Origin: a bacterium
Lineage (GTDB): Bacteria; SAR324; NAC60-12
NCBI GenBank assembly: GCA_965205865.1
Contig: CBDBHR010000028.1
Coordinates: 256,001-320,000, forward strand
Direction: 5' to 3'
DNA: 64,000 nucleotides
Of the stretch, positions 6,315 to 18,678 are shown in pieces. The notes beneath the pieces are model-generated. The model did no database searches. It had not been told where the DNA came from and saw only the letters and a list, made by a program, of their open reading frames with translations. The position numbers and the translations under genes were made by a program. How positions within the stretch are numbered: the first letter of the stretch is position 1; every line of letters begins with the position of its first letter.

Positions 6315-6850
6315 ATGGCTGGAGTGACACAGTTCCTCTTAGACAATATGCCCAAAATGGATGACCGCGCGGCAAAATGGCTATCGGATGCAGTAGTACC
6401 GGGACCTTTCTTGACAAAGCCGCTAGATTGGTATGGCCCAAGCCAGCCAAGGACCGTTAAGCCCATACCTCGCTCAGAGTCTTCAATTAAGTTTGACGAG
6501 AAAAAAGAACGTGAGAACAATTACAAGAAATGGTCCGACAAATTTTCTGAGACGAAACCACATCGTTTTGTTGAAAAGCTGGGGAAGATACTGCACTCCA
6601 TTTTTCCCTCCACAAAAGTTCTCGCTCGCCTGGAACCGAACTGGCCGAATGGGAAAAGCATTGACTTTCTCATCCCATCCATAAAATAGCCTTCGCTTAT
6701 CAGCATTCAAATACACCTGATACCCGTATCTTGGAGGCTGTTAAATGGTGTGATGGAAACGGATACAGGCTTATCATGATTGACGGTCCCAACGCAGTAA
6801 CGGAAAGCTCTCTACGCTCGCGTCTCAGAGAAATGCTACTCGAACTATGA
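6315..6850 (+). pseudogene. Frameshifted hypothetical gene with a degenerate PD-(D/E)xK / DUF559-like C-terminal domain
   Basis: ORF stops at 6689 (...SIDFLIPSIK); a shifted frame continues IAFAYQH...KWCDGNGYRLIMID to TGA at 6850, matching a DF.IP..KIAxEYQ-type pattern. Confidence 0.45.
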
Positions 6851-6896
6851 GCAGCTCTTTCAGGACTATCTGATTCCGCTAAAAGTGGGTCAAGCC

Positions 6897-8378
6897 GTGC
6901 GCCAGGAAAGCTGGCAAGAAATAGAGAGTGAAAGTCTCTTACTCGGTAAGGCAGTAACGACCCGCCGAGTCCCCGAGTCATGAGTGGCTATTCGCAAGGA
7001 TAGGCGCTAAGCGTTGACAGGGGAGAACATAGGTTCGGTATTGAGCTCCGAAATCATAGTTTCAGGTGCTGACCTTGTAGTCTGCTGGGGAAGGCAATAT
7101 CAACCGAAGGCGTTAGCGTGAGTCTCGACTGAGCCTGGCGGAGTCGAAGACCCGGCGCATGTGTGGAAGTTTCTTGATCGGAACCTGGGAGATCCTGAAG
7201 ACGACTGTCAACATTCTATTGGTAGTCGGATCGGGAAAATTAATAAATAACCCCGATATCTACGTCTTCAGGAAGTCGGACAAGTTCGTAGTAGCGTGAG
7301 CAGCCGACAAGGCTGTGGATTTTGGAGAGTGAAAGTCTCTCTGTCGTCAGTTTCCCATTCGGGCGACTAGCATATCCGGTGCGCTTAGCAGGTAACTGCT
7401 TTGCGTTCTGCCCGGAAGTAAAAGTCACCGTCTGCTTTGGACGAGAGTCCATAGTGGGAGCCAACAGGGTGGCGAGCAAACCTGGAGGCCTGAACATTAG
7501 TGAATGATTGCAGCTCCGAAAGAGACTTCCGTCGTGAATTGGCTTGACGGTGTGTTGCCCAACCGCCGACCCGCTCGCTACTCGGGGAAGGCCGAAGTTC
7601 CAAGGGAAGTAATGGGAACAGGCACCTTGGAGGGAGCCGGAGTATGGATCCAAGCATCCAGGGAAAGATCCACAGAGATAACGTCGGGAAGGGCCAACTT
7701 CCAGCAGGGACTCGCAATAACCTGCAAGGACCTACCGTATAGGGTAACACCGAAATCGGCAGGAGGATTTTGGTCTGGCGCATGAGTCCGTATGAGCGAT
7801 GAAGACCGGGTAACGCTGGTCGAGGGGATGCTTGGACATCTCCCTTTTGGAGGTAACACCTCTAAAAGGCAAAGGGGCTCTCGGTAAATGGCGGGCATTT
7901 CATGAACCACTGCCGAACTTGTGTCGGTCAAGAGTGTCACCACAAAGAATGTCGAGCTGGAGATCAAATCACTCACTCCAGGGGTGAATGCAGGCGAGTG
8001 CTTAAGCTTCGGATTGGGTGGGAAGGGTTTCTGGGGAAACGCTGTTGCTGCCAACCGGACTCGGGAAATCCGACCGTCCGGGATGAGAGGGGGGCTTGCG
8101 GAAACGTGATGCAGGGTCTGACGCCCTTTTGCCACGAAACCGGAAACGGGGGATACATTGGAAGTCGTTGACCTAAACATGCGCGCGCCGTATTTCTACC
8201 CGGCATGAAGCGGCGAACAATGAGATCATTTGTAGAGAGTAACAATGCAAAGGAAATCAACGGAGCCTGTGGAGCAAAGGGACTTGGCTGAGAGGAATTC
8301 TGCTTGCCCTCCTGTGTTCGGAACTCAGAGGCCGGTAAAATCAGAGAGCGGTTTAAGCAGGGTGCGCCAAACGGCAAC
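6897..8378 (+). mobile_element. Outer group II intron (class E-like), 3'-truncated and interrupted in domain III by a second intron
   Basis: Starts GTGCG; domain I motifs (GTGAAAGTCTCT, ATTGAGCTCCGAAA, GGGGAAGGC, GGAACCTGGGAGA); GAAGTCGGA junction. Domain III resumes at 8205 (ATGAAGCGGCGAACAA...GGAGCAAAGGGACTTG). Intron-encoded protein start TQRPVKSESGLSRVRQTA then breaks off; no DV/DVI. Confidence 0.85.
7296..8204 (+). ncRNA. Inner ORF-less group II intron (909 nt), non-canonical
   Basis: Starts GTGAG; EBS1 loop GCTACT (7577-7582) is complementary to the 5' flank AGTAGC (7290-7295); DV-like hairpin 8052-8085; DVI ends TTCTACCCGGC with a bulged-A candidate at 8198; short DIV with no RT ORF. 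Confidence 0.85.
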
Positions 8379-8467
8379 GTTTACCTGACCAGGAACGCGG
8401 ACAATCAGTACCCAAATCTCACTGATCTTCAAGAATGGGTCATGTCCGATATTGAAAGGTTTGTGGC

Positions 8468-8670
8468 ATGACTATGTTGAAAAAGAATCCCCTTAAAATC
8501 ACCCCTATCAAAGGTAGTCCGATGCTGCATTGGGTGGGCAAGAAGCCGTTGGACGTGGAGCGGTATTTCCAGCACAGTTATGCGAAACCCGTCGGCGTGG
8601 ACAATCCACCGGCCGAGTCGTCATACTTGGAATTTGTGAAAAGCGATTACAATCTGCTTTTTCATGGGGA
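8468..8670 (+). pseudogene. N-terminal fragment of a type III restriction-modification methyltransferase (Mod-like), frameshifted and truncated
   Basis: KG.PMLHWVGKKPL followed by FPAQLCE in another frame and NLLFHGD, then unrelated sequence. Confidence 0.6.
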
Positions 8671-8869
8671 CACAGTGGTAAGCCCCCGGAGTTGTTACGA
8701 AAGGTTCCGGGTCAGTTCAGTTTTGGATGCTCTCAAGGGAAAAAATCATTTAAGGTATTGAAAATTGGTAAGCAGAAAATTAGATCGAGTGAAGAAACTG
8801 AAGAAATAATAGCTGGCATTCCCTGATATGAATATTCTGGTACTCTCCGGCGAAAGTGCGTAGATGCCC

Positions 8870-9262
8870 TCATTCACGACGGATTGGCATCAGTTTGACA
8901 TGCTCCTCCAGCCAGGAGAGAAGCTCCGCGAAGCGGAAGGAGTTGGTCTTGAACAGCTTCATAAAGTGATTATAGGCCTCGCGGTTATCGCAGTCGATGA
9001 AATGACTGTTCAGACGGAGGAAGGTATCGGTGGCGCCGAGAGCGGTACGTTTGTTACCGTCCACGAAAGGATGGTTCATAGCGAGACTCTCCATCAAGGC
9101 GGCAGCCTCTTCTATCAGTCCGTCGTAGTAACCCATCTGCGGGCGCAAGAGAGCGGATTCCAACGCTCCCATGTCACGAAGACCGGCGGCGCCACCTGTT
9201 TCTGAAAGCAAGGCGTCATGAATGGCCACGACTTCTTCGATAGTGGGGAAACTGCGGGTCAT
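8870..9262 (-). CDS. doc: Doc/Fic-family toxin (death-on-curing)
   Basis: HPFVDGNKRTA Fic motif and GLRDMGALESAL; 130 aa. Confidence 0.92.
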   Translation of the reverse strand: MTRSFPTIEEVVAIHDALLSETGGAAGLRDMGALESALLRPQMGYYDGLIEEAAALMESLAMNHPFVDGNKRTALGATDTFLRLNSHFIDCDNREAYNHFMKLFKTNSFRFAELLSWLEEHVKLMPIRRE

Positions 9263-9486
9263 TCAGCAAGCAATTCATAAAGCAGACGATTTTTCTCGAG
9301 GCTGGCCTGAAAGTGCGCCATCACCTCGGGGCGTACTTTCTCGCGGACCTTGTTTTCGATGTAGCCGCGCATGGCGTCTTCGAGGACTGCTTGAAAATGA
9401 CGGCCTTCCCGGCGGGCGATCGCTCGCATTTCCGACAACAACTCCGGCGAAGCCTGGCTCGAGAATTTTTCACGTGAAACATCCAT
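9259..9486 (-). CDS. Putative antitoxin of the Doc toxin (ribbon-helix-helix-like)
   Basis: 75 aa, overlaps the doc start by 4 nt, ends KNRLLYELLAE like Doc-associated antitoxins. Confidence 0.75.
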   Translation of the reverse strand: MDVSREKFSSQASPELLSEMRAIARREGRHFQAVLEDAMRGYIENKVREKVRPEVMAHFQASLEKNRLLYELLAE

Positions 9487-9650
9487 TACCGTACTCCTCT
9501 CTAATATGGCTCAATTATGGCTCTATGCGGTCACGGTTTCAAGATAAATCTTGATGGAAATTGATAAAAGGCCAACTTTGGAGGTTATGCCACGAATTCC
9601 TGCTTCAGCTCCTCCAGGATTCGGGGTAGTTGCTCACGGCTATCCGTCGG

Positions 9651-10562
9651 CATGGCGACGGCGATTTGTTGAAAAAGGAATAACAGGTCTTAATGATGAT
9701 CCGCGGCCCGGCAGGACACGCATTTATGGAGCGGATAAAATCGAAGAGATTGTGAAGAAAACCATTGAAGAGAAGCCTGAGGACCGTACCCATTGGAGCA
9801 CGCGATCGATGGCCAAGGCAGTTGGCGTAGGCAAGACAACCGTCGCTAAAGTATGGAAGGCCCATCGCCTCGAGCCTCATCTGGAAAAAACATTTAAGTT
9901 GTCGCATGATAAGCATTTCACTGCGAAACTGAAAGATGTCATCGGCTTGTACATGAATCCTCCTGAGAAAGCGCTGGTCTTGAGCGTCGATGAGAAATCA
10001 CAAATCCAGGCACTCGATCGCACCCAGCCAGGTCTGCCACTGAAACCAGGACGCAATGGCACCAGAACTCATGATTATATCCGTCATGGCACCTGCTGTC
10101 TGTTTACTGCTTTGAATACGCAGACAGGGGAAGTGCTCGCTCGCTGTGAAAAACGGCACCGACACCAAGAGTATCTGCGCTTCCTGCGTCTTATTGACAA
10201 GACTACCTCGAAGCAACTGCAGTTACACTTGATCCTGGACAATTACGCCACCCACAAACATCTTAATATGAAAGAATGGCTCAAAAAACACCCGCGATTT
10301 CACCCGCATTTCATTCCTACTTCCTCCTCATGGCTGAACATGGTGGAACGTTTTTTTGGCAAGATCACTGCAGAACGGATTCGACGAGGCGCCTTCAAAA
10401 GCGTGCTCGAGTTGACCGAAGCCATCCATAGTTACATCGAGACACACAATCGCAACCCAAAACCCTATGTCCGGACTAAAACTGCCGAAGAAATTATCAA
10501 CAAACTCAAACCGGTCTATCAAATGACCAAAATTACAATGTATTAACCGAGCAATACACTAG
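9651..10562 (+). mobile_element. IS630-family element, 5'-truncated (transposase within ORF 9551-10546)
   Basis: WRRRF...GL.D.PRPGR, THWSTRSMA, DDE motifs SVDEKS, LDNYATHK, WLNMVERFF; right end ...ATACACTAG. The first ~33 codons of the ORF are unrelated sequence. Confidence 0.88.
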
Positions 10563-12801: not shown

Positions 12802-13164
12802 AGTCCCGGAGGGACGAAAGGGAATAGCCCAGCGATTCATCGCTGGGAAAGGCCCCCTCCTCCTCCTCAGCTAGTCCCGGAGGGACGAAAGGGAATAGCC
12901 CAGCAATTCATCGCTGGGAAAGGCCCCCCTCCTCAGCTAGTCCCGGAGGGACGACACTTCTTCGATCTTTCGAGTTACTCCCATAAGGAAAAAGGTGCTT
13001 TTTGATTTCAGGAGTCATCCTCTCAATTCGGATTTTTGTGCTAAAGACACAATGAAGATGATTGCTGACGTAGGAATGGACATGAAACCTCATTGTTGTG
13101 TCGTCCCTCCGGGACTTTGAAGGAGACTGTCTTTTGTTCCCAGCTTCCTTTCGTCCCTCCGGGA
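12802..13164. mobile_element. REP-like palindrome cluster around a truncated IS200-type (Y1/HUH) transposase fragment
   Basis: GTCCCGGAGGGAC units at 12802, 12873 and 12939, inverted copies at ~13098 and ~13147; minus-strand fragment HSYVSNHLHCVFSTK...LFPY (~12975-13093). Confidence 0.8.
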
Positions 13165-18090: not shown

Positions 18091-18494
18091 CAAGAGCTTC
18101 AAAACCTTTAAAGAGATCGTCTATTACAGCCTCGAGTCGCTTGATTAAACCAACGTTAGTTCGAAGTAACTGCCGCATTCCGCTGGTCTGCTCGGCTTGG
18201 TGAGCGAAAGACGACGCGTGCGACGCGATTCGTATTGCCATGTTCAAAGTTACCTCAGCCAAGCGCGTGTTTTAACAAAACTGGCTTTTATCCGGTAAAC
18301 CTCGTAGAAAAGTTTTCGAGAAAAAAGTTGACAAATTTTCAAATTTTTAGTATTCAGATAGGTAATTCACAATTCTGGAGGTTGCGGTTCAATGCAATTC
18401 GCCAGGGAACATCATCGTTCTTTTGTGAAAATATAAGGAAAGGAACGGCACTCCCCTGTCGCCGATTCTAATCTTTTTTCTCTTTGATATAGTT

Positions 18495-18582
18495 GTTCGT
18501 TGGGGGTGGAAAAGCCACTGGACTTTTTCTGAGAAAAACCCTTGGAACCTGAACTGGGTAATACCAGCGTAGGAAATGCGAA
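18495..18582 (+). promoter_or_regulatory. TPP riboswitch
   Basis: GGGGTG...CTGAGA...ACCCT...AACCTGA...GGGTAATACCAGCGTAGGAA upstream of a thiamine-binding protein gene. Confidence 0.92.
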
Positions 18583-18678
18583 GGTACATTCGATCTCGAA
18601 TCAATCCCAAGTCGTTTCTTCCACGTCGTTTCTCCCCCTCCGAATATTTTCCTGATCCAATCAATTCGGAGTAGTCTC

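Follow-up and report, generated by a model that had tools for sequence, protein, structure and literature searches.

A group II-type element without an open reading frame, nested at one site of a multicopy group II intron in a SAR324 genome

How did an element of 908 nucleotides (nt) without an open reading frame (ORF) come to lie inside a group II intron of a SAR324 bacterium, at one and the same position in four copies of that intron? The locus belongs to a 64,000-nt stretch of the forward strand (GenBank assembly GCA_965205865.1, contig CBDBHR010000028.1, positions 256,001 to 320,000; hereafter the window, numbered from 1), where a first-pass annotation made from the letters alone had described an ORF-less group II intron inserted into domain III of another intron. 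We call the outer intron O and the inner element A. In our reading, to which we give a probability of roughly three in four, A is a non-autonomous, ORF-less group II-type retroelement that homes under RNA guidance into the domain III hairpin of O, a parasite that borrows a resident reverse transcriptase (RT)/maturase.

Nesting of element A in intron O

As annotated, the outer intron starts with GTGCG at position 6897; an Rfam scan places a group-II-D1D4-6 match (RF02005) at 6931 to 7153 with 163 bits, against a gathering score of 49. A similarity search of the genome finds the first 399 bases of O 41 times at 89 to 100% identity (mostly 95 to 99%), and chaining of the matches yields 43 loci. 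The commonest form is 693 nt long and has no ORF; five complete copies hold ~1,265 additional bases at O position 571 and encode a 470-amino-acid (aa) protein with an RVT_1 domain. Domains V and VI of complete copies score 25.6 to 31 bits with RF00029, under the gathering score (40). Twenty-six uninterrupted copies diverge by 2.4% on average, and the variable sites across O copies are mosaic. The copy in the window is truncated: its homology runs to ~8382 (O position ~577 of 693) rather than ending as an intron at 8378, as had been annotated, and beyond that point it continues into the tail of an unrelated gene, a paralogue of a gene on contig C3. The intron-encoded protein expected behind the insert does begin there, at 8245 and not at ATGAAG itself, and its first 41 aa are identical to those of the 470-aa protein. 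Because domains V and VI are gone, this O copy cannot be a working intron, and the control of host splicing once suggested for A has nothing to act on here; complete ORF-less O is present in two of the other three twintron copies, those at C29:627015-628615 and C30:1205902-1207501. Group II introns are unusually abundant in the genome (G000), with 50 RF00029 matches (E≤0.01) and ~43 O loci, and many O loci are truncated or interrupted, including cases of O inside O (e.g., C26:239010-240180).

Comparison with empty sites delimits the insert. Uninterrupted O copies carry the empty-site sequence GTTCGTAGTAGCGATGAAG and read GTAGTAGCG|ATGAAG at the insertion point, position 400 being G in 25 of 26 aligned copies and T in one, and all four interrupted copies share the junctions ..GTAGTAGCG-TGAGCAGCC....CTACCCGGC-ATGAAG. 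Since G7296 is base 400 of uninterrupted O, the insert comprises 908 nt, 7297 to 8204; its deletion gives GTAGTAGCG|ATGAAG, that is, uninterrupted O, as the annotation had predicted. Of the limits first given for the inner intron, 7296 and 8204, the second stands and the first moves by one base: the seemingly canonical GTGAG(C) start is partly borrowed from the host, and the first bases of A itself are UGAGC, which depart from the GUGYG 5′ end of group II introns. The insert contains no ORF, so that the description as a twintron with an ORF-less inner element holds.

The shifted 5′ limit agrees with several features of the relatives of A introduced below. Their conserved 5′ end is (G)GGAGCAGCCGACAAGG, the family starting GGAGC or GUAGC, and in the tandem arrangements L089, L107, and L189 the ..CGAC end of one copy is directly joined to GGAGCAGCC or GGGAGCAGCC. 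The register of exon pairing in A stops at G7296, in agreement with a start at 7297. In L174, a relative from a metagenome, TGAGCAGCC begins right behind an adenine, where the 7-nt intron-binding site 1 (IBS1) of L174 itself ends, and the 3′ end is GGC; because start, IBS1 end, and GGC end agree in L174, we take U to be the genuine first base of A. The idea that the G common to A and host is microhomology left by end joining of linear intron cDNA was dropped in view of the tandem copies, L174, and the pairing register. As a separate observation, relatives of A lie head to tail or nested at L039, L089, L107, and L189, with ..CGAC followed by GGAGCAGCC at once or 4 nt on.

At the other end, position 8204 agrees with the family consensus ..TTCTA(C/T)C(C/T)CGAC, from which A deviates in its last bases. 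Scored 3′ ends of the family are GAC in 181 of 185 cases, GCC in two, and GGC by call in two, one of which (L171) is spurious; A ends in GGC. Where both ends could be scored, 39 loci read GGA..GAC, five GTA..GAC, one GGA..GCC, and one TGA..GGC, with the window in addition, and the combination of a first-base U with a penultimate G occurs among family members only in A and L174. In group II introns the first nucleotide is known to contact the penultimate one. The joint change in A and L174 may be compensatory or may represent one inherited event, and it gives a hint that the two ends touch directly.

Within these limits the parts of a group II intron follow one another (Table 1). The Rfam intron models, which the annotation had proposed as a check, divide: D1D4 models match O and, below the gathering score, A (33.2 bits), and RF00029 gives no match to A, at E≤10 or, in another scan, at E≤1. 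RF02003, the model matching domain I of A, reaches at least 49 bits inside the element at 10 of 40 relative loci. Domain V of group II introns is ordinarily a hairpin of ~34 nt with an AGC (or CGC) triad, a 2-nt bulge, and a GNRA loop. When paired by hand, that of A has normal size, and G and A oppose each other where canonical introns have U and U. Because AAC stands where AGC is normal, RF00029 overlooks the A family; none of its 50 matches in the genome (E≤0.01) lies inside a copy of A. The distal helix of domain VI forms five of five pairs in 139 of 150 non-redundant members, versus 1,215 of 19,096 mismatched pairings, with 37 different helix sequences. Group II introns ordinarily bulge an adenine 7 to 8 nt ahead of the 3′ splice site and end in AY; A has such an adenine (8198) but ends in GC. 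Two readings of the 3′ region were ruled out: 8052 to 8084 as a decayed, dead domain V, since its 23-mer is exact at hundreds of loci, and 8123 to 8204 as a foreign tail, since the terminal ..CTAYCYCGAC is the family consensus.

The structural address of the insertion was derived from the fold of uninterrupted O, which consists of domain I, a long hairpin (O bases 297 to 377), single-stranded AAGUCGGACAA, a small hairpin (388 to 416), and the stretch that holds the RT start codon. The small hairpin is GUUCGU-loop-GCGAAC, with the insertion point in its loop, and at the equivalent place A has a motif, CCGTATGAGCGATGAAGACCGGGTAACG, that resembles CGTAGTAGCGATGAAG of O. The insert thus sits in a small third hairpin of the outer ribozyme, and helix order and motif likeness suggest that this is domain III, as annotated, the name that we use for it.

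An ORF-less family and its exon pairing

A 23-mer of domain V of A (8057 to 8079) has exact matches in species-representative genomes (more than 112 loci) and in metagenomes (more than 121 loci). The two totals are lower bounds, family counts are among the matches listed, and the invariance of the 23-mer is built into a set of relatives found by it. Record titles name Bacillota, Actinomycetota, Desulfobacterota, Acidobacteriota, Planctomycetota, Pseudomonadota, Omnitrophota, and Chlamydiota along with two archaeal metagenome-assembled genomes (MAGs), with MAG binning errors possible. From 225 non-redundant matches listed, 105 could be judged for an RT, the upstream DNA of the remaining 120 being too short, and RT room or an RT ORF was found in 0 of the 105. 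The anchor by which the 5′ ends of relatives were set, GCAGCCGACAAGG, occurs upstream of domain V in 69 of these and is 700 to 800 nt away in 62 of the 69, which leaves no space for an RT gene; the other 36 have at least 1,000 nt upstream with no anchor by this rule, and none of them has an ORF of at least 150 aa bearing the Y/F-x-DD motif. The family is apparently strictly ORF-less, widespread, and phylum-spanning. We found no description of an ORF-less group II family with such a domain V in the literature searched, which does not by itself establish its absence from print.

Many relatives lie in or beside other introns. An Rfam scan of the first 40 of 65 anchored loci found group II matches outside the element at 15 of 40 loci, and in 12 of these 15 the match was D1D4-6, the class of O. 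Ten of the 46 longest upstream ORFs (from 66 anchored relatives) carry RVT_1 and/or GIIM, and among 45 elements for which both flanks are present, 6 interrupt a perfect lower stem of domain V. With the three lines of evidence combined, another group II intron is at or next to the element at 21 of 40 loci, a lower bound since the flanks extend to at most 1.5 kb. By eye, the sites of relatives include domain V loops, the domain V end, the linker between domains V and VI (L098, L183), domain I (Bacillota loci), the RT start region, copies of the element itself, and also ordinary intergenic DNA. The earlier expectation of a conserved domain III motif as the family's target therefore fails: relatives occupy other intron domains, RT starts, one another, and intergenic DNA, each matching its own exon-binding site 1 (EBS1). 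The family is thus enriched in introns without being confined to them. Because about half of the members of this lineage without an RT gene lie within or adjacent to another group II intron, mostly one of O's class, the lifestyle of an intron parasite is likely, and as judged from distribution that status is well supported.

The EBS1 hairpin of A, CCCG-CTCGCTACT-CGGG, is where the annotation had placed it, and its loop is complementary to the bases ahead of the insert. The pairing described there as 6 nt long in fact spans 7 nt (AGTAGCG/CGCTACT), all seven Watson-Crick, or 8 nt if T7575-A8205 is included; simple arithmetic gives an expectation of ~0.06 for a perfect chance complement of a fixed 7-mer within 908 nt. 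To relate loop and flank across the family we scored seven positions (Watson-Crick 2, G-U 1, mismatch −2) in 52 of the 67 members with a 5′ anchor, the other 15 being omitted for lack of a matching loop anchor, and used as controls each loop against another member's unlike flank. At a score of at least 11, the homologous loop pairs with its own 5′ flank in 43 of 52 relatives versus 124 of 2,458 mismatched pairings, which bears out the covariation of EBS1 with flanks that the first-pass annotation had named as potential support.

In 33 of 48 members, versus 249 of 2,218 controls, a segment near +225, the usual place of EBS2, likewise pairs with the flank, and IBS2 abuts IBS1 in 28 of 33 well-paired relatives. 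The match at this position in A itself (Table 1) is doubtful because it is displaced 12 nt upstream. Away from the EBS2 position, A has a 9-nt perfect complement, CGAACTTGT/ACAAGTTCG, between its domain IV (7914 to 7922) and O next to IBS1 (7280 to 7288); ~0.1 such matches are expected by chance (arithmetic), and it could be chance or an additional guide.

Origin of the nested copies

The genome contains four full copies of A, and the flanks place all of them at the same O site, in keeping with the homing first proposed. In the DNA beyond O, the four loci have no mutual similarity at E≤1e-3, and with outer flanks unrelated the copies are not segmental duplications. Apart from one 1-nt indel in a G run, the A copies are identical over 909 nt; between their host O parts there are 1 to 11 substitutions in 326 to 575 compared bases, and the window host is 10 to 11 substitutions from two other hosts. 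By arithmetic, ~16 differences would be expected in A had it accompanied the window host since their divergence. The contrast of 0 substitutions in A versus 1 to 11 in host O fits repeated site-specific homing, and passages of Mohr et al. (2010; PMC2882425) likewise read identical inner and diverged outer introns as recent independent insertions. On our reading the same insertion event occurred at least twice, and probably four times, in O copies at unrelated loci that had diverged beforehand.

One partial copy lies elsewhere. A 197-nt 5′ fragment (L005) sits in an insertion sequence (IS)-type transposase gene; ~20 paralogous IS copies read CCCCTGCAG|ATGAAT, so that the 3′ exon of the fragment would start ATGAA, as at the O site. 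A homolog at an unrelated site without EBS1 pairing had been named beforehand as grounds for giving up the first reading. This fragment lies at an unrelated site, and it is neutral on the pairing rule because EBS1 is not preserved in it.

Three further O copies carry a second, unrelated ORF-less group II intron, B (~903 to 905 nt), 4 nt upstream of the site of A. Its domain V/VI is canonical (RF00029, 44 bits), and its domain I is of the D1D4-3 type. Judged against the empty site, the first bases of the insert are GCGCAC; the GT of GTGCGC is common with O, a 2-nt overlap for which microhomology from end joining was likewise considered.

Several observations weigh against homing by an active parasite. 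Only 4 of ~40 O target sites are occupied, the mosaic O copies show active recombination among them, and no relative of A was found among the 40 nearest genomes searched. A departs from its own family at the first and penultimate bases, its match at the EBS2 position is 12 nt farther upstream of IBS1 than the family norm, its domain I match falls under the Rfam gathering score, and RF00029 gives no match in 6500 to 9000 even at E≤10 and none at the gathering score across the window. To our knowledge, its triad and both termini differ from those of all experimentally tested group II introns, and because of these departures the activity of A is not to be assumed. For roughly half of the relatives no surrounding intron is visible; their neighbors include genes for major facilitator superfamily, radical SAM, TonB receptor, and response regulator proteins. 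A and its junction with O are present in three RNA-run assemblies, the samples being labelled sponge metagenome, and the contigs hold a joint that skips exactly 7297 to 8204 (908 nt), with no 909-nt skip listed; these are contigs only, in which such a joint is indistinguishable from the ~36 uninterrupted DNA copies or from DNA carry-over, and no splicing or mobility was observed. In the same assemblies, a 48-nt stretch over domain V of A (8050 to 8097) reaches a depth of ~555, versus 3 to 11 for the rest of A. The deep contigs continue into unlike sequence, and the depth probably reflects related elements of other community members rather than expression of A.

Since the variable sites of O are mosaic, transfer of the insert by recombination has to be reckoned with; its tracts would need to end within ~28 to 37 nt on the 3′ side. 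A might have entered O once and then spread by homologous recombination or gene conversion among the ~40 repeats of O, or through template switches of an RT from one O RNA to another; four identical junctions would follow naturally, mosaicism points to exchange between copies, and the O parts of three twintrons are only 1 to 5 substitutions apart. The window host, however, differs by 10 to 11 substitutions in ~575 nt, and with the nearest differences ~28 to 37 nt 3′ and 119 to 140 nt 5′ of the insert, very short exchange tracts would have to enclose a 908-nt heterology. The exact fit of junction and EBS1 and the family covariation moreover predict homing at this very bond, and we regard a single entry followed by recombination as unlikely. 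Movement of the twintron as a unit, with O retrohoming to its own targets and unspliced A as a passenger, is much less likely still. Each twintron does occupy a typical O target, GGGTCA(A/G)GC(C/T), and composite mobility is named as one possible route in the text of Mohr et al. (PMC2882425); yet the O parts should then be as alike as the A parts, against the observed 1 to 11 versus 0 substitutions, and with 908 nt inserted in domain III, the O ribozyme would presumably be crippled.

It is equally improbable, in our estimate, that the family consists of ribozymes that derive from group II introns and act in another way, for instance by hydrolytic cleavage or protein-free self-integration, their nesting merely marking where insertion is possible or tolerated. 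An AAC triad, a 5′ end other than GUGYG, and the absence of any ORF would suit such elements, and both the hydrolytic DNA cleavage of HYERs and a protein-free reverse-splicing intron are described in portions of PMC11754743. Against this, A has all intron parts in normal order, its bulged adenine is 7 nt from the 3′ terminus, and the EBS1/EBS2 pairing stops exactly at the junction; HYERs, as characterized in that source, are of class IIC and 0.4 to 0.6 kb long, whereas A has 908 nt and a D1D4-4-type domain I.

Under the homing that we favor, A would be transcribed within O, would fold, would set EBS1 (perhaps also EBS2) on O sequence, and would be excised. Pairing of EBS1 CGCUACU with AGUAGCG would fix insertion between O bases 400 and 401, and free A RNA could reverse-splice into a further O copy at AGUAGCG|A, the target being DNA or RNA. 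The RT of a resident intron would then copy A; besides the intact RT genes of O, the genome has three 460-aa RT/maturase genes with a GIIM domain, and the O protein and these three, at C26:166117, C15:7367, and C25:25181, are the candidates. Such use of host RT/maturase in trans would fit an RT found in 0 of 105 members and the intron association at 21 of 40 loci. We infer in the same way that A splices, that its copies arise by reverse splicing with borrowed RT, and that in domain III it probably disables the O ribozyme until removed; the inner intron of a twintron often has to leave first, according to a section of a review (PMC4424553). The window copy of A is a relic in a truncated host. 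On a wider proposition we consider the odds about even: that A belongs to a gene-less, phylum-spanning lineage with a rebuilt catalytic hairpin (AAC and purine-purine oppositions versus AGC over G-U) and 5′ terminus, hyperparasites that home into structural hairpins of RT-coding group II introns, chiefly of one class, and borrow their RT.

Window features and known nested introns

Table 1. Positions of intron parts, pairing sites, copies, and neighboring features (window coordinates unless a contig is named; C28 carries the window)
Feature	Position	Strand	Description
Outer intron O, bases 1-400	6897..7296	+	5′ GTGCG, domain I, long domain II hairpin, junction AAGTCGGACAA, 5′ half of putative domain III ending in G400
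IBS1 of A	7290..7296	+	AGTAGCG, last 7 O bases ahead of the insert; perfect Watson-Crick complement of 7576-7582
Inner ORF-less group II-type element A	7297..8204	+	908 nt, 5′ TGAGCAGCC ... CTACCCGGC 3′; from empty-site comparison, four copies, family ends
Domain I core of A	7323..7499	+	RF02003 group-II-D1D4-4, 33.2 bits, E 4.4e-5, under gathering score 49
EBS2-position segment	7524..7530	+	GACTTCC; complements GGAAGTC at 7271-7277
EBS1 hairpin	7570..7586	+	CCCG-CTCGCTACT-CGGG; EBS1 CGCTACT at 7576-7582, loop 7574-7582
Domain V of A	8052..8084	+	2-nt CC bulge, GAAA-type loop, AAC replacing AGC triad; pairing by hand
Domain VI of A	8085..8204	+	~70-nt distal insertion, helix TGCGG/CCGTA, bulged A 8198 (7th from end), 3′ GGC
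Outer intron O, bases 401 to ~577	8205..8382	+	3′ half of putative domain III, domain IV start, first 41 RT codons (ATG 8245); then break
Full copies of A	C28 (window); C29:627308-628216; C30:788634-789543; C30:1206301-1207209		all at same O site
5′ fragment of A (L005)	C29:45404-45599		197 nt, 96% identity; IS-type transposase gene, after CCCCTGCAT
Copies of intron B	C28:326612-327516 (6.6 kb past window end); C29:728189-729062; C30:654280-655123		94-96% alike
Toxin-antitoxin-like pair	8870-9486	−	130-aa ORF with HPFxDGNKR motif; 75-aa ORF overlapping upstream
331-aa ORF	9551-10546		IS630-type transposase look (by eye)
Acido-Lenti-1 RNA	12802-12918	−	Rfam scan, two adjacent matches (55.9, 50.1 bits)
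TPP riboswitch	18492-18593	+	Rfam scan, 62.5 bits

Downstream of the twintron the window holds a toxin-antitoxin-like pair, whose 130-aa ORF carries a motif that we take to be Fic/Doc-like, followed by a transposase-like ORF and two RNA loci (Table 1).

The closest parallel to this locus is found in the twintrons of Thermosynechococcus elongatus, where ORF-less TeI3 (F3) introns lie inside TeI4 (F1) introns, as set out in the parts of Mohr, Ghanem, and Lambowitz (2010; PMC2882425) on which we draw. There as here, an ORF-less inner intron occupies one conserved site of a multicopy outer intron, inner copies are identical and outer ones diverged, and the flanks have good EBS/IBS pairing; the mobile T. 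elongatus intron TeI4h, like A, also has a 5′ T. Action of a resident intron's RT in trans was shown by experiment in that system and is proposed for A. The T. elongatus inner intron is, on the same account, a deletion derivative of the same intron family and lies between two start codons in domain IV. Unlike it, A comes from a different, wholly ORF-less lineage with an altered domain V and 5′ end, and it is in the domain III hairpin.

Nested group II introns of Methanosarcina acetivorans (Dai and Zimmerly 2003), in the summary that a review gives of them (PMC4424553), are similar in that other group II introns are targets of repeated homing, by ORF-less and RT-coding introns alike, and so provide a perpetual homing site. 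They home into RT ORFs of related introns, in arrays up to five deep (PMC4424553), whereas A targets a ribozyme hairpin and is unrelated to its host. The Trichodesmium Tery_4732 twintron, going by excerpts of Pfreundt and Hess (2015; PMC4649490), shares with ours an inner intron within a host ribozyme domain (domain I) and an atypical inner domain V; its inner intron, by contrast, is protein coding, its host gene is conserved, and sequential splicing was shown by experiment (PMC4649490). HYERs (Liu et al. 2024, via extracts of PMC11754743) are likewise bacterial ORF-less group II-derived RNAs guided by short base pairing, with ~7 bp of recognition in the class IIC, 0.4- to 0.6-kb form described there. 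Compared by description, A is not HYER-like: it is longer (908 nt), its domain I is of the D1D4-4 type, it has a segment at the EBS2 position, and its domain V differs. What sets this locus apart is the lineage of the inner element, which is ORF-less throughout, altered in domain V and termini, spread over many phyla, and biased to one host class.

For the window alone the finding is modest, the dead relic of such an event. Large surveys, in the portion of PMC8919778 that bears on this point, detect introns via RF00029 or RT genes. A and its relatives, with no ORF, a domain V that escapes RF00029, and hundreds of loci, fit the caveat that attaches to such detection, and if they are indeed a hyperparasite lineage, surveys by RT genes or canonical domain V would miss it. 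If A and its relatives are active, group II chemistry would not require the AGC triad, compact RNAs targeted through 7 to 16 nt of pairing would be at hand, and introns that parasitize other introns across many phyla would form a natural system.

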